From a virus (Duplodnaviria > Heunggongvirae > Uroviricota > Caudoviricetes): a stretch of DNA of 13,516 nt. The translations under genes and the position numbers were made by a program. The notes beneath the pieces are model-generated. The model did not search any database. It was not told where the DNA came from and worked only from the letters and a program-made list of their open reading frames with translations. Where the stretch lies: IMG/VR virus record IMGVR_UViG_2541047764_000010; one strand, given 5' to 3'. Shown here one piece after another: positions 1 to 11,493 of the stretch. Each line of letters begins with the position of its first letter. Within the stretch, counting starts at the first letter, position 1.

Positions 1-828
1 CTATGCTGTTTTGATATCTACGATAACCCAGTCTTTACCACGATCATCATTGTATCGGTCGGTCATTTTTCTGGATTTATGGCCTAACAACTTTTGCGTA
101 TCCAGACCCTGTTCCCGATATAACCGTTCTGACAGAGATCGCTGCTCATGAAATGTGGGCGCAGTTCCTTGCTCCCATTTTATGCCACATTTTTCCCTGG
201 CCTTTTTAAAAGCCGTTGTCAGAGTATTTGCAGAAACCTGGTCTCCTCTGTTTGCTTGAGAGGTAGTGTGACGGTAATGGACCAGATATTTACTAACAAC
301 AGCATCCCTGCACTGAGATATAACTTCACGAAGGGTAATATTCAGAGCATCGCATTTCAGGTTAAGCGGAATAGCAAGTTTTGAACCGGTTTTTTCCTGA
401 GTAATGTGCAACATGTCGTCCCAGATATCAGAGAATTTCAAATTGCAGATATCACCTAAACGTTGTCCAGTAACAAGAGCAAGTAGCATGCCGCATTTTA
501 AATAGGGCTGCCGTCTGCTTACGCTTTCAAATATTGCCTGCCATTCGGGCAGTGACAATCTTTGGCGGTTTACTCGATTTCGCGGTTGTTTTGTTGCCTG
601 CGCTGGGTTAAATCCTGGCGGAACATGTCCTGCGTGTTGTGCTTCTTTGAAGACGTCGATCAACACCATTCTCACGACTTGCGCCATCCTGTTATGACCT
701 TCAGCCTTTACAGCATCAATTATTTCGGCAATATCAAGTGCGGTAATATCCTTGAGGTGTTGCATTCCACAATGCTCACGGAAAAGACGAATGGGTTTGC
801 CTTTTTGCCGATAGGAGTTGGGTCTTAG
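1..828 (-). pseudogene. int: Tyrosine integrase, 3' (catalytic) portion; separated from its 5' portion by an IS5 insertion
   Basis: Minus-strand ORF ending at TAG (plus 1..3). The translation has the lambda-Int-like C-terminal pattern (TGQRLGD...KFSDI, HEQRSLSERLY, LLGHKS...Y) and joins in frame to the fragment at 2024..2342 once IS5 and one TTAG copy are removed. Confidence 0.88.
825..828. repeat. Left copy of the 4-bp TTAG target-site duplication flanking IS5
   Basis: TTAG immediately precedes the IS5 left end (GGAAGGTGCGAACAAG at 829) and is repeated at 2024..2027; IS5 is known to duplicate YTAR targets. Confidence 0.85.
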
Positions 829-3795: not shown

Positions 3796-3956
3796 ACAGC
3801 CCCTCGTTTATTATTTATCTCCTCAGCCAGCCGCTGGGCTTTCAGTGGATTTTGGATAACAGAAAGGCCGGGAAATACCCAGCCTCGCTTTGTAACGGAG
3901 TAGACGAAAGTGATCGCGCCTACCCGGATATTATCGTGAGGATGCGTCATCGCCAT
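3768..3956 (-). CDS. Lambda Orf60a-like small protein; likely 60 aa from the second ATG (3950)
   Basis: ORF directly downstream of exo on the same strand, overlapping the exo stop. Starting at Met3 gives exactly 60 aa. Confidence 0.55.
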
Positions 3957-4627
3957 TGCTCCCCAAATACAAAACCAATTTCAGCCAGTGCCTCGTCCAT
4001 TTTTTCGATGAACTCCGGCACCATCTCGTCAAAACTCGCCATGTACTTTTCATCCCGCTCAACCACGACATAATGCAGTCCTTCACGCTTCATACGCGGG
4101 TCATAGTTGGCAAAGTACCAGGCATCTTTTCGTGTCACCCACATGCTGTACTGCACCTGGGCCATGTAAGCCGACTTTATGGCCTCGAAACCACCGAGCC
4201 GGAACTTCATGAAATCCCGGGAGGTAAACGGGCATTTCAGCTCAAGGCCATTGCCGTCACTGCATAAACCATCGGGAGAGCAGGCGGTGCGCATACTTTC
4301 GTCGCGATAGATGATCGGGGATTCAGTAACATTCACGCCGGAAGTGAATTCAAACAGAGTTCTGGCGTCGTTCTCGTACTGTTTTCCCCAGGCCAGCGCC
4401 TTAGCATTAACTTCCGGAGCCACACCGGTGCAAACCTCAGCCAGCAGGGTGTGGAAGTAGGACATTTTCATGTCAGGCCACTTCTTTCCTGAGCGGGGCT
4501 TTGCTATCACGTTGTGAACTTGTGAAGCGGTGATGACGCCGAGCCGTAATTTGTGCCACGCATCATCTCCCTGCTCGATAGCTCTCACGTCGATCCCGGT
4601 ACGCTGCAGGATAATGTCCGGTGTCAT
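3947..4627 (-). CDS. exo: Lambda exonuclease (Red-alpha), 5'-3' dsDNA exonuclease
   Basis: The 226-aa translation [35 protein letters not shown]...GFVFGEQWR is near-identical to lambda Exo as I recall it. The start overlaps the bet stop (ATGA), as in lambda. Confidence 0.95.
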
Positions 4628-5409
4628 GCTGCCACCTTCTGTTCAGTGGCTTTTTGTTTCAGGAATCCAAGAGCTTTCACTGCTTCGTCCTGTGTCAGTT
4701 CTGACGATGCACGAATGTCGCGGCGAAATATCTGGGAACAGAGCGGCAATAAGTCGTCATCCCATGTTTTATCCAGGGCGATCAGCAGAGTGTTAATCTC
4801 CTGCATGGTTTCATCGTTAACCGGAGTGATGTCGCGTTCCGGCTGACGTTCTGCAGTGTATGCGGTATTTTCGACAATGCGCTCGGCTTCATCCTTGTCA
4901 TAGATACCAGCAAATCCGAAGGCGAGACGGGCACACTGAATCATGGCTTTATGCCGTAACATCCGTTTGGGATGCGACTGCCACGGCCCCGTGATTTCTC
5001 TGCCTTCGCGAGTTTTGAATGGTTCGCGGCGGCATTCATCCATCCATTCGGTAACGCAGATCGGATGATTACGGTCCTTGCGGTAAATCCGGCATGTACA
5101 GGATTCATTGTCCTGCTCAAAGTCCATGCCATCAAACTGCTGGTTTTCATTGATGATGCGGGACCAGCCATCAACGCCCACCACCGGAACGATGCCGTTC
5201 TGCTTATCAGGGAAGGCGTAAATTTCTTTCGTCCACGGATTAAGGCCGTACTGGTTGGCGACGATCAACAATGCGATGAACTGCGCATCGCTGGCATCAC
5301 CTTTAAATGCCGTCTGGCGAAGAGTGGTGATCAGTTCCTGTGGGTCGACAGAATCCATGCCGACACGTTCAGCCAGCTTCCCTGCCAGCGTTGCGAGTGC
5401 TGTACTCAT
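4624..5409 (-). CDS. bet: Lambda Bet (Red-beta) single-strand annealing protein
   Basis: The 261-aa translation [66 protein letters not shown]... matches lambda Bet. Confidence 0.95.
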
Positions 5410-5414
5410 CCGTT

Positions 5415-5831
5415 TTATACCTCTGAATCAATATCAACCTGGTGGTGAGCAATGGTTTCAACCATGTACCGGATGTGTTCTGCCATGCGCTCCTGAAACT
5501 CAACATCGTCATCAAACGCACGGGTAATGGCTTTTTTGCTGGCCCCGTGGCGTTGCAAATGATCGATGCATAGCGATTCAAACAGGTGCTGGGGCAGGCC
5601 TTTTTCCATGTCGTCTGCCAGTTCTGCCTCTTTCTCTTCACGGGCGATCTGCTGGTAGTGACGCGCCCAGCTCTGAGCCTCAAGACGATCCTGAATGTAA
5701 TAAGCGTTCATGGCTGAACTCCTGAAATAGCTGTGAAAATATCGCCCGCGAAATGCCGGGCTGATTAGGAAAACAGGAAAGGGGGTTAGTGAATGCTTTT
5801 GCTTGATCTCAGTTTCAGTATTAATATCCAT
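5415..5831 (-). CDS. gam: Lambda Gam (RecBCD inhibitor), 138-aa long form
   Basis: The translation [61 protein letters not shown]... matches lambda Gam. It overlaps kil by 46 bp, as in lambda. Confidence 0.95.
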
Positions 5832-5929
5832 TTTTTATAAGCGTCGACGGCCTCACGAAACATCTTTTCATCGCCAATAAAAGTGGCGATAGTGAATTTA
5901 GTCTGGATAGCCATAAGTGTTTGATCCAT
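5786..5929 (-). CDS. kil: Kil (host-killing FtsZ inhibitor), 47 aa
   Basis: An internal ATG at 5929 gives [47 protein letters not shown], matching lambda Kil. The 89-aa ORF in the track is an artefactual upstream extension. Confidence 0.9.
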
Positions 5930-6062
5930 TTTTTGGGACTCCTGGCTGATTAAGTATGTCGATAAGGCGTTTCCATCCGTCACGTAATTTACGGGTGATT
6001 CGTTCAAGTAAAGATTCGGAAGGGCAGCCAGCAACAGGCCACCCTGCAATGGCATATTGCAT
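5898..6062 (-). CDS. cIII: cIII (protects cII from FtsH), 54 aa
   Basis: Hand translation of the minus strand from the ATG at 6062 gives [54 protein letters not shown], matching lambda cIII. An AAGGAG Shine-Dalgarno lies upstream. It overlaps kil by 32 nt in another frame and is absent from the ORF track. Confidence 0.9.
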   Translation of the reverse strand: MQYAIAGWPVAGCPSESLLERITRKLRDGWKRLIDILNQPGVPKNGSNTYGYPD

Positions 6063-6134
6063 GGTGTGCTCCTTATTTATACATAACGAAAAACGCCTCG
6101 AGTGAAGCGTTATTGGTATGCGGTAACGCCGCGC

Positions 6135-6503
6135 TCAGGCGGCTTTGATAGTCATATCATCTGAATCAAATATTCCTGATGTATCGATATCGGTAATTCT
6201 TATTCCTTCGCTACCATCCATTGGAGGCCATCCTTCCTGACCATTTCCATCATTCCAGTCGAACTCACACACAACACCATATGCATTTAAGTCGCTTGAA
6301 ATTGCTATAAGCAGAGCATGTTGCGCCAGCATGATTAATACAGCATTTAATACAGAGCCGTGTTTATTGAGTCGGTATTCAGAGTCTGACCAGAAATTAT
6401 TAATCTGGTGAAGTTTTTCCTCTGTCATTACGTCATGGTCGATTTCAATTTCTATTGATGCTTTCCAGTCGTAATCAATGATGTATTTTTTGATGTTTGA
6501 CAT
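6135..6503 (-). CDS. ea10: Ea10-like early protein (122 aa; lambda Ea10 is a reported ssDNA-binding protein)
   Basis: A 122-aa ORF immediately upstream of cIII in the lambda order. Size and sequence match my recollection of lambda Ea10. Confidence 0.7.
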   Translation of the reverse strand: MSNIKKYIIDYDWKASIEIEIDHDVMTEEKLHQINNFWSDSEYRLNKHGSVLNAVLIMLAQHALLIAISSDLNAYGVVCEFDWNDGNGQEGWPPMDGSEGIRITDIDTSGIFDSDDMTIKAA

Positions 6504-6523
6504 CTATTCATATCCTCACAGAT

Positions 6524-6549
6524 AAAAAATCGCCCTCACATTGGAGGGC
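6524..6549 (-). terminator. Candidate rho-independent terminator (minus strand) upstream of ea10, in a tL-like position
   Basis: On the minus strand, a GCCCUC-caaugu-GAGGGC hairpin (perfect 6-bp stem, plus 6532..6549) is followed by GAUUUUUUAU (plus A-run 6524..6530). Confidence 0.6.
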
Positions 6550-6763
6550 AAAGAAGATTTCCAATAATCAGAACAAGTCGGCTCCTGTTTAGTTACGAGC
6601 GACATTGCTCAGTGTATTCACTCGTTGGAATGAATACACAGTGCAGTGTTTATTAGTATGCCTGTCTTTTAACCACATCAGGCTCGGTGGTTCTCGTGTA
6701 CCCCTACAGCGAGAAATCGGATAAACTCTATTCACCCCTACAGAGAGCAAAAGAGAAACGCCG

Positions 6764-7345
6764 ATGAACAACTCATGGTGGCAGGAACTAATGCATTTTT
6801 TCCTGCAAGGAATGACACTTAAACAGTTGATTCATATGCTAATCATCCTGATCATATTGATTATTGTTATGCCTGTAAGCGTAAAAGAATGGATAAACCT
6901 GCATAATCCAGAAATCCTTCCTCATTACTGGATGTATTACATCCTGTTGTTTTGCGTTAGCTATGTGCTTAACGGCGTTGTTAATTCCGCTTATCACGCT
7001 GTGACTGTAAGAATTGAGATATTCGCTGCTCAGAAGCGCAAATCTAAAGAAGAGAAATACGTGCAAGATTTGTTTGATTCGTTAACTCTTGGAGAAAGAG
7101 CGTATTTGGCATTCGCTGTAGCCGCTAATAACCAGCTAAAGACAGAAAAGGGAAGCCCTGAAGCAATCTCATTGCTCGAAAAAGGGCTTCTTATTCGGGT
7201 ACCTTCTGCTACTGGATATCCTGAAATCGACCGTTTTGTTATCCCGGAACGCTATAGAAATGAGTGCTACATTAGGTTTGCTGGGAAGAAAGACAGTCTT
7301 ATGGATGAACTTATCGCTCAGGATAAGCATGGCAAAAACAAGTAA
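6764..7345 (+). CDS. sieB: Superinfection exclusion protein B (SieB)
   Basis: A 193-aa ORF on the opposite strand to the pL operon, between ea10 and N, with a hydrophobic N-terminal segment (LIHMLIILIILIIVMPV) and AT-rich composition. Size, position and sequence match lambda/P22 SieB as I recall. Confidence 0.75.
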   Translation: MNNSWWQELMHFFLQGMTLKQLIHMLIILIILIIVMPVSVKEWINLHNPEILPHYWMYYILLFCVSYVLNGVVNSAYHAVTVRIEIFAAQKRKSKEEKYVQDLFDSLTLGERAYLAFAVAANNQLKTEKGSPEAISLLEKGLLIRVPSATGYPEIDRFVIPERYRNECYIRFAGKKDSLMDELIAQDKHGKNK

Positions 7346-7361
7346 TTAGCAAATGAATTTA

Positions 7362-7670
7362 TCATCTCGCCGTCAGTTGTTTTGATTTCCGGTAGCCTGC
7401 CGCGTAAATAGCTACGTTTGGCAGGCAAACACTTCCACTGCATTCATCTACTTTCTTGCAGCGAAGGCTTCCGAGTGATATTGCTTTTTCAGAAAGGCTT
7501 AACCGCTTTCTCGGGTCTTCCTGAACAGGTTCCTCACTGTCTGTGCCGAAGATCGAATCGATGATGTTGCAGATGGAATCACGCTCGATGGCCAGCTTTC
7601 TGCGCCGCTCATGACGGCGAGTTTTGGCATTTCCTGCAAATGTTGATTTTCCGTACACGATTACCGTCAT
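7362..7670 (-). CDS. N: Antitermination protein N, P22-type (gene 24-like)
   Basis: From the ATG at 7670 (GAGGA Shine-Dalgarno 7 nt upstream) the product is MTVIVYGKSTFAGNAKTRRHERRRKLAIERD... (102 aa). The arginine-rich motif matches P22 gp24, and P22-type boxB sequences are present at both nut sites. Confidence 0.88.
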   Translation of the reverse strand: MTVIVYGKSTFAGNAKTRRHERRRKLAIERDSICNIIDSIFGTDSEEPVQEDPRKRLSLSEKAISLGSLRCKKVDECSGSVCLPNVAIYAAGYRKSKQLTAR

Positions 7671-7788
7671 GATGTTTTCCTCATGTGAAATGGCTTTGGT
7701 GGTGATGCGCCAGATGCTGATCTTCTGGTTGCTGTCGTTACTGCTGCAATTCACATCACCCCAAACCCATCTCGTTTGGTATCTGTTC

Positions 7789-7822
7789 GCGCTTTGTCAG
7801 CGCATCATCGAAGTTAAAGAGC
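7789..7822 (-). promoter_or_regulatory. nutL: nutL (boxA + P22-type boxB) on the minus strand
   Basis: The minus strand reads GCTCTTTAA (boxA-like, plus 7814..7822), an 8-10 nt spacer, then GCGCTGACAAAGCGC (plus 7789..7803), a 5-bp stem with GACAA pentaloop identical to P22 nutL boxB as recalled. Confidence 0.85.
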
Positions 7823-7859
7823 CTGCCAATCTGTTCCGTTTGGCTGCCAGCGTCCTGCT

Positions 7860-7915
7860 GATGGCGATTATAATGAACCAATAGTTCGATATTATCAAGA
7901 ACTATAAGTACGAAT
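7860..7915 (-). promoter_or_regulatory. Candidate pL promoter and OL operators
   Basis: A minus-strand TATAAT (plus 7867..7872) lies about 40 nt upstream of nutL; no good -35 hexamer is seen. Two 15-bp sites spaced 24 bp apart, TGAACCaatAGTTCG (7874..7888) and AGAACTataAGTACG (7898..7912), share a consensus with three sites in the cI-cro region. Confidence 0.45.
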
Positions 7916-8080
7916 TGTTTGTGGTTCATTAACTTAATGAGATATGTTTTTGATATGTAAAGGAATTTATTTTTGTAAAGATTGAAGATTGGTCAGTAGG
8001 AGAGAAAGAATTGTTTGCTGGCGTGTTAGTTCGTGGGTTAGCACATGTGCGGATGTTAAATAAGGTAGACGATCGTGAGG

Positions 8081-8106
8081 AAAAGAAAAACCGGCGCTGA
8101 GGCCGG
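8081..8106 (-). terminator. Rho-independent terminator (minus strand) 6 nt downstream of the 299-aa gene; analogous in position to lambda timm
   Basis: On the minus strand, a CCGGC-cucagc-GCCGG hairpin (plus 8091..8106) is followed by UUUUUCUUUU (plus 8081..8090). Confidence 0.6.
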
Positions 8107-8112
8107 GTATAA

Positions 8113-9012
8113 TTATTTGATTATTTCTTTTATAAAGACTTCTTTCGGTTGGTATTTTTTATCTGATGATTTGAGCTGGTACGTTATTGTTATATCAGCA
8201 CGTACAGAAAATTTACCTGCAAAATCTGATGGGTTTACGTTGGGGCCAAGAACCATATTTACTCTTCGATCTATTAATCCAGGGATAACAGCAGCCCAAC
8301 CTTTCTCTGGATTGTCGAGGTCTAATGCACGGATTTCAACATCAACATCAAAATGATCCTGAGTATATGACTCTGGTGTGAAGACAACTTCAGTTGGGGC
8401 TTTTTTAATGGTTTCAGCGGGAATGGTCACTGTACCACCCCCTGTACCTATGACCATCGTAGATCCTTCGTCTGCCCTAGCTGGGGCAAGCGTCTTAATG
8501 GAACTTTTGGCAAGAGTCTTCTTATTGGTTACCGTGCTTTCTATGATTGCTTGAAGACGGTCAGGTGAAATATTAGCCTCACCGGCACCAATATTGATGA
8601 TTGTATTGTTATTTGCTTCAAAGTGGGAGGTGTTGCTTGGAGCCATAGCCTTAGTTGCTAGAACTAAGCCATATCCAACCAGACCAATAACAACAGCACC
8701 AACGAGAGCGTTTCTCATTTTCCCATTTCCGATCTTTGCATGAGCGCCAGCAAGAAACTTGTCCATTTCTTCTTGGCTACCAAAGAGGAGTTTAATAACA
8801 ATATCTTCATAAAGGCTTCCTGCTTCTAATCGCGCAACATGCACCGATATATCAAGGATATTAGCCCCTGTCAGTTCCTGCAAAACACCTTCTGATTGTT
8901 TTGCGATGGCCTCCCACCCTTGAAGGGAGGTAATCACATCTTTGATGCTTACAGGTTCTTTAGTTGAATAATATATGTTTTCGGTAAAGGTTAAAGATAA
9001 TTCTTGGGACAT
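8113..9012 (-). CDS. Unrecognised 299-aa single-pass membrane protein in the cI-distal immunity-region slot (rexAB-equivalent); candidate exclusion/defence protein
   Basis: A long ORF with a GAGGG Shine-Dalgarno 6 nt upstream of the ATG and a terminator after the stop. One strongly hydrophobic segment (NALVGAVVIGLVGYGLVLATKA, about residues 103-125) has K/R on its N-terminal side. The gene looks AT-rich relative to its flanks. No homology recognised. Confidence 0.7.
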   Translation of the reverse strand: MSQELSLTFTENIYYSTKEPVSIKDVITSLQGWEAIAKQSEGVLQELTGANILDISVHVARLEAGSLYEDIVIKLLFGSQEEMDKFLAGAHAKIGNGKMRNALVGAVVIGLVGYGLVLATKAMAPSNTSHFEANNNTIINIGAGEANISPDRLQAIIESTVTNKKTLAKSSIKTLAPARADEGSTMVIGTGGGTVTIPAETIKKAPTEVVFTPESYTQDHFDVDVEIRALDLDNPEKGWAAVIPGLIDRRVNMVLGPNVNPSDFAGKFSVRADITITYQLKSSDKKYQPKEVFIKEIIK

Positions 9013-9141
9013 CCGAGCCCTCGCTGTTTCTTTCGATTTGCTGTGTTAAGCTAATATTTTAATATCCATGTTTCTGTTTGCTTGCAGTGTGTTTCTCACC
9101 ACCATCCAAACGTACTGGTTACTAGCTATGTGATGATGAAG

Positions 9142-9849
9142 TCATGAACTTTTCAGCCATTCCCTGGCCTCGATGTCATCTAGGTGGCGAGATTGCTTCA
9201 GAATACCAGCTACATACTCCACCTTTGCTACTTGATGATAAGGCAACGTTATTGGCCTGTGGTCTTGGTTGATGCTTGTAAATTGGTATTCTCCGTCTCT
9301 GTCATAGCCAAGAACCTTGATCATGTTGTGCCCTTCAATGGTTCTGACAAACACCTCATCACCTGGGAATACTTTGGTGTTAGGCTCAATGAGTACATAT
9401 TCTCCTGATTTTATTCTGGGCCACATGCTGTCTCCTTTTACACGAAGACCAAAGGCATCTGGATCATCGCTATAAATCTTGAGCCACCCATCGCGCTCTT
9501 CGGTCATCTCGATGGCACCATCAACACCAAGAATTGCCTCACCAACCACGCGCACTAACCCTTTTTTTAATTTGCCAACAATTGAAAAAGTATCTTCATC
9601 ATTCGCTCCATTTAACGAAGTGCCGTGCTGAAGCCAAACAACATCAACGTTTAGAAATTTCGCAAGCGCATTCATTTTTTCCTGGCGTGGTAAAGACTCA
9701 GCATTAAACCATTTGCTAACGCCTTTGGACGAAAGAGAAAGGGCACGGGCTATGGCCATTCCCCTACCATGTTCATCAAGACCAGCTTCTTTACAGGCTT
9801 GCGCTAGCCGCTGGGCGAATTCTTTGCGCACTTTTTCATTCTGAACCAT
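9142..9849 (-). CDS. cI: cI-type prophage repressor (N-terminal HTH plus C-terminal S24 LexA-like autopeptidase domain)
   Basis: A 235-aa ORF divergent from cro. The C-terminal region has the S24 signature (GDSMWP Ser nucleophile context, conserved Lys in IKVLGYD). The N-terminal region has an HTH-like segment (GMAIARALSLSSKGVSKW). The sequence differs from lambda cI, so this is a different immunity type. Confidence 0.85.
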   Translation of the reverse strand: MVQNEKVRKEFAQRLAQACKEAGLDEHGRGMAIARALSLSSKGVSKWFNAESLPRQEKMNALAKFLNVDVVWLQHGTSLNGANDEDTFSIVGKLKKGLVRVVGEAILGVDGAIEMTEERDGWLKIYSDDPDAFGLRVKGDSMWPRIKSGEYVLIEPNTKVFPGDEVFVRTIEGHNMIKVLGYDRDGEYQFTSINQDHRPITLPYHQVAKVEYVAGILKQSRHLDDIEAREWLKSS

Positions 9850-9912
9850 GAGTACGATACTAAAGCACTTGCAAAAACTTTCAGTTCAACCATAATGCGT
9901 ACTGAAAGTACG
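9842..9912. promoter_or_regulatory. OR region: candidate pR promoter and three 15-bp operator sites
   Basis: Plus-strand TTGCAA (9869..9874), a 16-bp spacer and CATAAT (9891..9896) give a plausible pR. Candidate operators are TGAACCatgAGTACG (9842..9856, overlapping the cI start codon), AAAACTttcAGTTCA (9874..9888) and the perfect palindrome CGTACTgaaAGTACG (9898..9912, over the predicted pR start). Confidence 0.5.
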
Positions 9913-9927
9913 AAAAAGGACATTCCT

Positions 9928-10155
9928 ATGCAAAATCTTGATGAGCCGATTAAAGGTGTCGGCATCCCTGAAGTTGCGAAGGCTTGTGGAGTTAGCGAAA
10001 GGGCTGTCTATAAGTGGCTCAAAAACGGCTTCCTCCCTAAGACTGAGTTTTTTGGGAAAACGAAATACGCATCAAAAATCGAAGAGATTTCTGGTGGCAA
10101 ATATCAAGCAAGCGAAATGCTTGAAATAAGCAAAAAGAACCTTCTGGCAGCATAA
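9928..10155 (+). CDS. cro: Cro-like HTH repressor (75 aa)
   Basis: The ATG at 9928 has an AAGGA Shine-Dalgarno 7 nt upstream. The product MQNLDEPIKGVGIPEVAKACGVSERAVYKWLKNG... has an HTH and is divergent from cI. The upstream ATG at 9895 lies inside the promoter/operator and lacks a Shine-Dalgarno. Confidence 0.75.
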   Translation: MQNLDEPIKGVGIPEVAKACGVSERAVYKWLKNGFLPKTEFFGKTKYASKIEEISGGKYQASEMLEISKKNLLAA

Positions 10156-10162
10156 GTAACAC

Positions 10163-10197
10163 CGCTCTTTATCAATCTGCACCGCCGACAACGCGGT
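10163..10197 (+). promoter_or_regulatory. nutR: nutR (boxA CGCTCTTTA plus P22-type boxB)
   Basis: CGCTCTTTA at 10163..10171 and ACCGCCGACAACGCGGT at 10181..10197, matching the P22 nutR boxB as I recall it, immediately downstream of cro. Confidence 0.85.
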
Positions 10198-10239
10198 AAC
10201 TAATTAAGAACTCATCGAAAGATGCGTATTAGTGATTAT

Positions 10240-10284
10240 TTACCTATGGAAATAGTAAGAAATGGAACAAACAAATTACAGCAA
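10240..10284 (-). promoter_or_regulatory. Candidate cII-dependent pRE promoter (TTGC-N6-TTGT box) on the minus strand overlapping the cII start
   Basis: The minus strand reads TTGCTGTAATTTGT (plus 10271..10284), resembling the TTGC-N6-TTGC cII recognition repeat, followed about 20 nt later by TACTAT as a possible -10. Confidence 0.3.
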
Positions 10285-10561
10285 ACTATCACAGCGCGAC
10301 GTTGATCGCGCAGAAACAGATTTACTTATCAACCTGTCAACGCTTACTCAGCGCGGTCTGGCAAAGATGATTGGCTGTCATGAATCGAAGATAAGCAGAA
10401 CAGACTGGAGGTTTATAGCTTCGGTCTTGTGTGCTTTTGGCATGGCATCAGACATCAGTCCGATTAGCAGAGCTTTTAAGTATGCGCTTGATGAAATCAC
10501 CAATAAAAAACGCCCGGTGTGCAAGACCGAGCGTTCTGAACAAATCCAGATGGAGTTCTGA
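10262..10561 (+). CDS. cII: cII transcriptional activator (lysogeny establishment)
   Basis: A 99-aa ORF whose C-terminus ...TNKKRP..TERSEQIQMEF matches the lambda cII C-terminus; the N-terminal half is divergent but contains an HTH-like segment. It sits between nutR and O. Confidence 0.85.
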   Translation: MEQTNYSKLSQRDVDRAETDLLINLSTLTQRGLAKMIGCHESKISRTDWRFIASVLCAFGMASDISPISRAFKYALDEITNKKRPVCKTERSEQIQMEF

Positions 10562-10583
10562 GGTCATTACTGGATCTATCAAC
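10503..10583 (-). ncRNA. oop: OOP-like antisense RNA with its pO promoter just upstream
   Basis: The minus-strand sequence from about 10583 (GUUGAUAGAUCCAGUAAUGACCUCAGAACUCCAUCUGGAUUUGUUCAGAACGCUCGG...) matches lambda oop RNA as recalled and ends in a CGCUCGG/CCGGGCG hairpin plus U6 (plus 10505..10533). A minus-strand CATAAT (plus 10591..10596) and TTGCTG (plus 10614..10619) with a 17-bp spacer match lambda pO. Confidence 0.7.
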
Positions 10584-10593
10584 AGGAGTCATT

Positions 10594-11493
10594 ATGACAA
10601 ATACAGCAAAAATACTCAACTTCGGCAGAGGTAACTTTGCCGGACAGGAGCGTAATGTGGCAGATCTCGATGATGGTTACGCCAGACTATCAAATATGCT
10701 GCTTGAGGCTTATTCGGGCGCAGATCTGACCAAGCGACAGTTTAAAGTGCTGCTTGCCATTCTGCGTAAAACCTATGGGTGGAATAAACCAATGGACAGA
10801 ATCACCGATTCTCAACTTAGCGAGATTACAAAGTTACCTGTCAAACGGTGCAATGAAGCCAAGTTAGAACTCGTCAGAATGAATATTATCAAGCAGCAAG
10901 GCGGCATGTTTGGACCAAACAAAAACATCTCAGAATGGTGCATCCCTCAAAACGAGGGAAAATCCCCTAAAACGAGGGATAAAACATCCCTCAAATTGGG
11001 GGATTGCTATCCCTCAAAACAGGGGGACACAAAAGACACTATTACAAAAGAAAAAAGAAAAGATTATTCGTCCGAGAATTCTGGCGAATCCTCTGACCAG
11101 CCAGAAAACGATCTTTCTGTGGTTAAACCGGATGCTGCAATTCAGAGCGGCAGTAAGTGGGGAACAGCAGAAGACCTGACCGCCGCAGAGTGGATGTTTG
11201 ACATGGTGAAGACCATCGCGCCATCAGCCAGAAAACCGAATTTTGCTGGGTGGGCTAACGATATCCGCCTGATGCGTGAACGTGACGGACGTAACCACCG
11301 CGATATGTGTGTGCTTTTCCGCTGGGCCTGCCAGGACAACTTCTGGTCCGGTAACGTGCTGAGTCCGGCCAAACTCCGCGACAAGTGGACCCAGCTCGAA
11401 ATCAACCGTAACAAGCAACAGGCTGGCGTGACAGCCGGAAAACCAAAACTCGACCTGACAAACACTGACTGGATTTACGGGGTGGATCTATGA
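10594..11493 (+). CDS. O: Replication initiator O (origin-binding protein)
   Basis: The 299-aa translation MTNTAKILNFGRGNFAGQERNVADLDDGYARLSNMLLEAYSGADLTKRQFKVLLAILRKTYGWNKPMDRITDSQLSEI... matches lambda O and contains the ori iterons. Confidence 0.95.
   Translation: MTNTAKILNFGRGNFAGQERNVADLDDGYARLSNMLLEAYSGADLTKRQFKVLLAILRKTYGWNKPMDRITDSQLSEITKLPVKRCNEAKLELVRMNIIKQQGGMFGPNKNISEWCIPQNEGKSPKTRDKTSLKLGDCYPSKQGDTKDTITKEKRKDYSSENSGESSDQPENDLSVVKPDAAIQSGSKWGTAEDLTAAEWMFDMVKTIAPSARKPNFAGWANDIRLMRERDGRNHRDMCVLFRWACQDNFWSGNVLSPAKLRDKWTQLEINRNKQQAGVTAGKPKLDLTNTDWIYGVDL
10942..11075. repeat. Lambda-type replication origin inside O: four ~18-bp iterons followed by an AT-rich unwinding region
   Basis: The iterons are ATCCCTCAAAACGAGGGA (10942..10959), ATCCCCTAAAACGAGGGA (10962..10979), ATCCCTCAAATTGGGGGA (10986..11003) and ATCCCTCAAAACAGGGGGA (11009..11027), followed by an A-rich tract to about 11075. 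Confidence 0.9.

Follow-up and report, generated by a model that had tools for sequence, protein, structure and literature searches.

The window analysed here, IMG/VR virus record IMGVR_UViG_2541047764_000010 at its full length of 13,516 nt, is the early region of a lambda-like coliphage with cI/cro of the 933W type and N of the P22 type, as mapped by Pfam and PHROG scans together with the annotation of Escherichia phage 1H12 (Table 1). We were interested in positions 7900-9141, between OL and the cI stop codon, which contain a 299-codon open reading frame (ORF299) and which a preliminary description had taken by eye for an AT-rich island, that is, a horizontally acquired moron with a dedicated terminator that was inserted into the immunity region. 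The hairpin terminator, the cI stop (9142) and the OL-like palindromes were located where that description had placed them, and the AT run that it quoted, GGAATTTATTTTTGTAAAGATTGAAGATT, is present at about 7962-7990. Eleven sequenced lambda-like coliphages (1H12 and the Lambda_ev isolates; genus Jouyvirus) were 100% identical to the window over the tested stretch, and the segment 7300-10200 was found at ≥99% identity in 150 of 5426 complete E. coli genomes (~3%). The cI/cro module showed 97.7% DNA identity to cI/cro of Stx2a phages, the 933W/Stx-phage immunity type.

Table 1. Features of the window, in order of position (ORF299 segments in amino acids, aa)
Feature	Position	Strand	Basis or remark
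exo, RecT-type annealing protein, gam, kil	3947-6055	minus	
DUF2528 gene	6135-6503	minus	
sieB	6764-7345	plus	
P22-type N	7362-7670	minus	
PL/OL	about 7870-7914		
PL-like promoter	7870-7898	minus	-35 TTGATA 7898-7893, 17-nt spacer, -10 CATTAT ending 7870; consensus scan, 9/12 matches
Putative OL operator-like palindromes overlapping PL	7875-7914		GAACCAATAGTTC 7875-7887, AACTATAAGTACGAA ~7900-7914; palindrome scan
AT-rich non-coding spacer upstream of PL	7916-8069		contains GGAATTTATTTTTGTAAAGATTGAAGATT; backbone, not cargo
Lambdoid immunity-operon terminator (left junction of slot)	8070-8108	minus	hairpin 8106..8091 + T-run; terminator scan and RNA fold
ORF299 (299 codons)	8113-9012	minus	RefSeq WP_000076840.1 "hypothetical protein", phrog_4506; ORF call and PHROG
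ORF299, alpha/beta N-domain (predicted cytoplasmic)	aa 1-98		
ORF299, predicted transmembrane (TM) segment	aa ~102-120		
ORF299, beta-rich C-domain	aa ~180-299		
Cargo-specific 5' leader of ORF299	9013-9100	minus	not common to same-cI prophages with other cargo
Gap between cI and ORF299	cI stop to ORF299 start		129 nt
Right junction	9101-9141	minus	conserved post-cI sequence CATAGCT[G/A][A/G]TAAC plus ACGTTTGG; alignment of five cI-to-cargo junctions including lambda
cI repressor, 933W immunity type (HTH_3 + Peptidase_S24)	9142-9849	minus	Pfam and PHROG matches
OR/PRM/PR region	9850-9927		palindromic operators, e.g. CGTACTGAAAGTACG at 9898-9912
PR-like promoter	9869-9896	plus	consensus scan
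cro	9928-10155		followed by cII, O, P

When the window was compared with E. coli prophages that share its 933W-type cI (97-99% identical DNA) and its PL/N side, unrelated genes were found in these between ~8109 and ~9100-9123; a further prophage in the set, L015, differs in its repressor and lacks cargo. In L012, homology ran unbroken from 7443 through PL/OL, spacer and terminator (95.9% identity) and again from 9124 (99.1%), and between these points a HipA-family kinase and a DUF3037 protein were encoded, which is the stk arrangement of 933W and a pair listed by PADLOC as candidate system PDC-M66A/B. Similarly, L013 carried an unrelated 300-aa protein that is a BstA homolog (PADLOC E = 4e-106), with homology resuming at 9114, and L014 carried a Clp-fold serine protease, with homology only at 8071-8108 and from 9114 onward. 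Lambda itself has RexA/RexB in this slot (PADLOC E = 9e-110 and 9e-61). The alignment to related prophages that had been recommended for finding the insertion boundaries did yield them, and the exchangeable unit is about 8109-9100, comprising ORF299 and its 88-nt leader between two old recombination junctions. The remainder of the flagged interval on the left, 7900-8108 with OL/PL, spacer and terminator, turned out to be backbone, 96% common to the prophage with the stk-type cargo, so that the limits 7900-9141 could not be kept. The L014 protein (L014:2241-3242 in E. coli T28R; WP_001084325.1) is a 333-aa serine protease of the SDH family without a match in PADLOC, and is another candidate defence cargo.

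At the left junction, the terminator hairpin (RNA fold -9.1 kcal/mol, z = -1.9) belongs to a core that matches lambda 35787-35825 at 94.9% identity; this piece of lambda directly adjoins the stop codon of rexB, and we take it to be the immunity-operon terminator tIMM. The core was detected in 121 phage records, beside rexB, 933W-type and H-19B-type cargos, and multiple alignment gave a ~38-nt core GATCGTGAGG.AAAGAAAA.CCGGCGCTGAGGCCGGGT common to the window, L012, L014 and lambda, with divergence beginning directly on the cargo side of the hairpin. As the terminator is common to other cargos and to lambda, it is not dedicated to ORF299, contrary to what had been assumed. At the right junction, the conserved motif was found just past the cI stop in every variant compared, lambda included, and blastn breakpoints fell at 9114-9124. 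Taken together, the order cI - cargo - terminator - OL/PL is itself the conserved arrangement, and the alignments show a swap of cargo within a standing slot, at the two old junctions, instead of the self-contained insertion into an ancestral operon that had been proposed. Other 933W-type prophages keep GGCCTGAAGAGACGTTTGG 3' of the cI stop (L012:3780-3830, L013:3420-3470, L014:3360-3410), a non-coding relic of the last codons of lambda cI, of which the window keeps only ACGTTTGG at ~9101-9112; this relic is the fossil of an earlier repressor swap at the right junction.

The same gene was also found in other company. A near-identical copy is present in Edwardsiella hoshinae and Kluyvera ascorbata (96-97% aa and 90-95% DNA identity), where the DNA homology covers no more than the ORF, a leader portion of 42-62 nt and a hairpin that is alike but not identical; the repressors upstream are ≤32% identical to the cI of the window or undetectably related to it. 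Horizontal acquisition, as the preliminary description had suggested, is thus borne out from two sides, by different genes behind the same cI and by the same gene behind unrelated repressors. More distant homologs lie directly 3' of a short CI-type repressor (Pectobacterium, 74% identity), directly 3' of an S24 repressor with a 28-nt gap (Citrobacter, 52% identity), three genes 3' of a repressor (Pseudomonas phage U9), in the interval from Q to the holin gene but in opposite orientation (a prophage of Serratia rubidaea), alongside Mu-like head genes (Accumulibacter and Pseudomonas), and after the primase of a satellite-like AlpA-primase island (Serratia fonticola). At least 9 of 30 immediate upstream neighbours were Xre/CI-type helix-turn-helix proteins, six matching Phage_CI_repr and five Peptidase_S24, and the gene of a DUF499 defence ATPase was found 0.5 kb from one homolog. 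A word-indexed search gave 56 homologs, down to 29% identity, and an exhaustive profile search gave 662 clusters at 50% identity, nearly all of ~300 aa and none with a domain fusion, from Gamma-, Beta- and some Deltaproteobacteria. In the Mu-like cases (L005/L006 6001-6900 from Accumulibacter and L029 from Pseudomonas sp. MBLB4136) the gene lies in or beside the head-morphogenesis module, its neighbours being either the gene of Mu protease gpI or those of Mu F and the portal, and this accessory site is distinct from the one linked to a repressor. In Serratia fonticola (L004:8194-12909), three large genes (847, 598 and >824 aa) follow just 3' of the homolog; the 847-aa and 598-aa proteins gave no Pfam or PADLOC match, and the trio may be an uncharacterised multi-gene system in the satellite-like island.

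The base composition was less telling within the window. With 40.5% GC, the interval 7900-9141 lies below both equal-length flanks (44.1% and 43.7%), as had been estimated by eye, but the difference amounts to 3-4 points only and the interval is part of a 5.4-kb low-GC block (5700-11100; 42.7% GC vs 49.8% in the remainder of the window, p = 4e-16). The sliding-window check placed it within the lowest 1% of same-size segments, a rank reached only because the window also holds recombination and replication genes of ~50-55% GC, and the minimum was found elsewhere, in the 1242-nt segment starting at 6144 (39.9% GC) over DUF2528/sieB (6135-7345). The most AT-rich part of the interval, 7916-8108 (38.9% GC), is non-coding backbone, to which most of the weak AT-richness is thus due, whereas the cassette 8109-9100 has 41.0% GC vs 43.0% in the rest of the 5700-11100 block (chi-square p = 0.27), so that AT-richness cannot serve as the signature of a moron here. 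The coding region is A/T-biased as described, since the GC content at third codon positions of ORF299 (0.327) is the lowest in the window, vs 0.432 for the pooled neighbours (p = 0.0015), but it is not significantly below that of DUF2528 (0.358) or cro (0.416). At all 29 other loci, homologs of ORF299 were more AT-rich than their flanks (mean -8.3 points; Wilcoxon p = 4e-9). The gene is therefore compositionally foreign as a family, and in the window this is masked by the AT-rich immunity region. A moron in the sense of Juhala and Hendrix is an extra gene of some relatives only, with its own promoter and terminator and an atypical composition. Some close relatives have ORF299, and others lack it or have something else in its place; the hairpin at 8091-8106 is the shared lambdoid terminator and not one of its own.

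ORF299 is preceded by a GAGGG Shine-Dalgarno sequence 6 nt 5' of its start and matched phrog_4506 (unknown function) end to end with E = 1e-170. The ratio of non-synonymous to synonymous substitution rates (dN/dS) was 0.10 against the Edwardsiella copy and 0.05 against the Kluyvera copy, indicating a real gene under strong purifying selection. No match above noise was obtained for ORF299 in Pfam, NCBIfam and PADLOC 2.0 or for 34 aligned family members in Pfam; a profile search of PDB sequences gave E = 0.3 at best, no structural homolog was found, and searches of the literature and of DefensePredictor supplements gave no mention of its accessions or of phrog_4506. A conserved hydrophobic helix was seen in all 34 sequences (Kyte-Doolittle 19-residue maximum 1.4-2.4; TM segment in Table 1), with a mean of 3.6 lysine and arginine residues in the 15 positions before it vs 0.9 in the 15 after it. 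By the positive-inside rule this bias would place the N-terminus in the cytoplasm and the C-terminus in the periplasm, and ORF299 would hence be a single-pass (bitopic) inner-membrane protein. The most conserved element is an invariant ANNNTIINIGAGE motif at aa 133-145, just past the helix. A confident AlphaFold2 model (predicted local distance difference test 82.8, predicted template modelling score 0.68) shows an N-domain of the order beta-alpha-beta-beta-alpha, followed by long helices in the centre and a C-domain rich in beta structure. In one prophage (L017 1114-2790; E. coli EECO1006, NZ_CP090319.1) the insertion sequence IS1B lies within ORF299, which is annotated there as fragments of 654 nt and 198 nt, and cI, cro, N and sieB are intact; this indicates that ORF299 is dispensable for prophage maintenance.

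Between cI and ORF299, no sigma-70-like promoter reached the threshold of a simple consensus scan in the 129-nt gap, and no terminator was detected by the terminator scan, the leader RNA fold giving z = +0.32. The simplest model would be read-through from PRM through cI into ORF299, as for lambda rexAB. For bstA, transcription by read-through from the repressor promoter has likewise been proposed (PMC8585504).

On the other side of the slot, the PL-like promoter has the same position relative to N and OL as lambda PL and would drive leftward transcription into nutL and N. The AAGTACGAA of the putative OL recurs in the OR palindrome listed in Table 1. The spacer upstream of PL is 95.9% identical to that of L012 despite the kinase and DUF3037 cargo of the latter, and Stx2a phages share part of it, up to 7979. 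A scan of the spacer for the consensus of integration host factor (IHF) gave matches at chance level only. One exact consensus match, WATCAANNNNTTR at 8110-8122 on the minus strand, overlaps the ORF299 stop beside the terminator; it is one of two in the window, a number equalled in 34 of 200 shuffles, and is probably due to chance. The PL leader contains, on the minus strand, GCGCTGACAAAGCGC (boxB at 7789-7803), which we take to be a nutL boxB of the P22 type, in agreement with the P22-type N. Small ORFs on the plus strand (7624-7884; RefSeq annotates a 216-nt plus-strand coding sequence, WP_000971595.1) and on the minus strand (7756-7929; 57 codons) also lie over this leader; they had no family matches in the Pfam and PHROG scans and overlap PL/nutL, and are therefore probably spurious. 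sieB, on the opposite strand and adjoining N, is a second exclusion gene.

We favour the reading in which the interval represents the slot for cargo in a lambdoid immunity operon and ORF299 is a probable inner-membrane anti-phage cargo, with a probability of roughly 0.55. The slot has the order cI - cargo - conserved terminator - OL/PL, at the place where lambda has rexAB, and its content was exchanged by recombination at the post-cI sequence and at the tIMM-like terminator. In a lysogen, ORF299 would be expressed from a PRM read-through transcript ending at the shared terminator, and the bitopic product would expose a ~100-aa N-domain to the cytoplasm and a ~175-aa C-domain to the periplasm. 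Most likely, it would then protect the lysogen from other phages by acting at the inner membrane, through superinfection exclusion, in which incoming genomes are kept out as by P22 SieA (PMC10883804), or through abortive infection triggered at the membrane, two modes that the present data do not discriminate. An anti-phage role of any kind, which we regard as slightly better than an even bet, is suggested by the slot-mates BstA, PDC-M66A/B and RexA/RexB, by the DUF499 neighbour, by the bitopic topology, and by reports that the stretch between cI and N is known as a mosaic hotspot in which abortive-infection genes share the repressor promoter (PMC8585504). Several points weigh against this reading. 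Guilt by association is fallible, as cargo slots also hold virulence and fitness genes, and about two thirds of the ORF299 family members are not beside a repressor. The topology is drawn from the positive-inside rule only, and the membrane boundary is uncertain because AlphaFold shows the ANNNTIINIGAGE motif as a helix continuing the TM segment. Co-transcription with cI is deduced from simple scans that found neither terminator nor promoter, and the leader of ORF299 could hold a non-consensus promoter. More tentatively, at somewhat less than even odds, ORF299 may represent an unrecognised, widespread family of single-gene anti-phage proteins that are bitopic, carry an invariant juxtamembrane ANNNTIINIGAGE motif, travel as portable cargo of lambdoid and Mu-like prophages and satellite-like islands, in slots behind repressors and elsewhere, and act by a mechanism unlike that of RexAB, BstA, Stk or SieA.

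The cargo might also serve lysogenic conversion with a benefit for the host other than defence, such as envelope modification, stress or serum resistance, colonisation, or membrane and periplasmic interference. A predicted membrane and periplasmic location suits envelope functions, prophage slots do hold fitness and virulence genes, ORF299 matches no defence model, and the family occurs in environmental Beta- and Gammaproteobacteria without being bound to pathogens or to one phage type; moreover, the phenotype of bstA was first tied to virulence and its defence role found later (PMC8585504). We consider this explanation unlikely, though a serious rival. Of the four other cargos seen in this very slot, three belong to validated or candidate defence systems, and the gene also occurs in satellite-like and defence-adjacent contexts. 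The very different lifestyles of the hosts argue for a common target, and phages are such a target.

A function in the life cycle of the phage itself, namely in lysogeny maintenance, control of induction, or lysis and entry, would fit a gene that adjoins cI, is probably co-transcribed with it and is under strong purifying selection, and homologs near lysis or head genes are known from some genomes. Close relatives that share cI, cro, N and PL with the window lack ORF299 altogether and carry other genes instead, however, the prophage with the IS1-broken ORF299 has an intact cI, and the positions of the gene, which range from the immunity region and an inverted place in the Q-lysis gap to a Mu head module and a satellite-like island, follow no shared life-cycle logic; such a role is therefore very improbable. 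Least probable of all is that there is no island and that ORF299 was vertically inherited within a lambdoid early and immunity region that is AT-rich in general. The compositional data from the window, with the cassette not differing from its block, the lowest GC at sieB/DUF2528 and third codon positions not significantly unlike those of DUF2528 or cro, are all compatible with it, and the 11 phages and 150 E. coli genomes with the region are all ≥99% identical across it. Yet this explanation is largely refuted by the same-cI prophages, which have unrelated cargos between sharp junctions, by the presence of the gene next to unrelated repressors as well as in phage modules of other kinds, and by the AT shift of the family against its flanks at 29 of 29 loci.

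That lambdoid phages carry variable cargo from cI to the immunity terminator is already well known, and the AT-rich "island" is therefore ordinary as such. What is gained are the junctions of the slot at base-pair level, formed by the terminator of lambda and by a post-cI scar, and a strongly conserved, unannotated family of predicted membrane proteins at a place where sister prophages carry defence genes of the RexAB, BstA and Stk types. If ORF299 does defend its host, a new membrane-level mechanism would be added, and cargo between the 3' end of cI and tIMM-like terminators could be harvested systematically for new defence genes. As a single gene from a widespread, uncharacterised family, ORF299 is an easily testable candidate.

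Among the known systems, lambda rexA-rexB share slot and orientation with ORF299, with a cI-cargo gap of 112 nt in lambda and 129 nt here, followed in both by the 94.9% identical terminator and OL/PL, and expression is presumed to start from the repressor promoter. RexB is a small multi-pass membrane protein, whereas ORF299 has one TM helix with large predicted soluble domains on both sides. Moreover, rexAB are two genes and the window has one, without sequence similarity to RexA or RexB; ORF299 gave no PADLOC hit to either at E ≤ 0.1, compared with 9e-110 and 9e-61 for the proteins of lambda. RexB is a membrane protein (PMC8585504), as ORF299 is predicted to be.

A BstA homolog occupies this exact slot in the same-cI prophage L013. 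BstA reportedly has an N-terminal KilA-N-like DNA-binding domain, and ORF299 has no Pfam domain, no hit with the hidden Markov model of BstA and E = 3.5 in BLASTP against the L013 homolog. Like ORF299, BstA of Salmonella prophage BTP1 (Owen et al., 2021; PMC8585504) is a single cargo of ~300 aa directly 3' of the repressor; its gene has a leader of its own, ends at a Rho-independent terminator and occurs behind diverse repressors and in diverse Gram-negative hosts. BstA is soluble and localises to replicating phage DNA (PMC8585504), in contrast to ORF299 as a predicted membrane protein. No self-immunity element like aba was seen in the window, although no search aimed at one was made. The stk-type kinase and DUF3037 pair of 933W shares the slot, the 933W-type cI, the terminator and the PL/N side with the window (flanks 96-99% identical), but consists of two genes, one encoding a HipA-family kinase, without similarity to ORF299. 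Stk is said by Friedman and colleagues to exclude HK97.

Other proteins considered and rejected were Tab, which has 83 aa and is unrelated, SNIPE, which combines a TM segment with DUF4041 and GIY-YIG, and the DUF6575 defence proteins (Vassallo et al., 2022), for which one phage protein showed a weak structural resemblance only (TM-score 0.45 at 10% identity) and none of the 34 family members matched even at E ≤ 1. ORF299 is not a SieA protein either, as it has a single hydrophobic helix and the FxRYPxEAxxFNK motif is absent from the family alignment. HK97 gp15 has a single TM segment and a periplasmic C-terminus. Similar to the role proposed for ORF299, P22 SieA and HK97 gp15 (Cumby et al., 2012) are prophage-expressed membrane proteins that act alone, and a block of genome transit in the inner membrane or periplasm is the mechanism that we favour for ORF299. 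SieA proteins have about 160-200 aa, three or four TM helices and the FxRYPxEAxxFNK motif (PMC10883804), with 162-164 aa and three TM helices in SieA of P22, whereas ORF299 has 299 aa, one TM helix, another invariant motif and no sequence similarity to it. The ORF299 family, with its 662 clusters, is also far broader than SieA and is not confined to one phage type.

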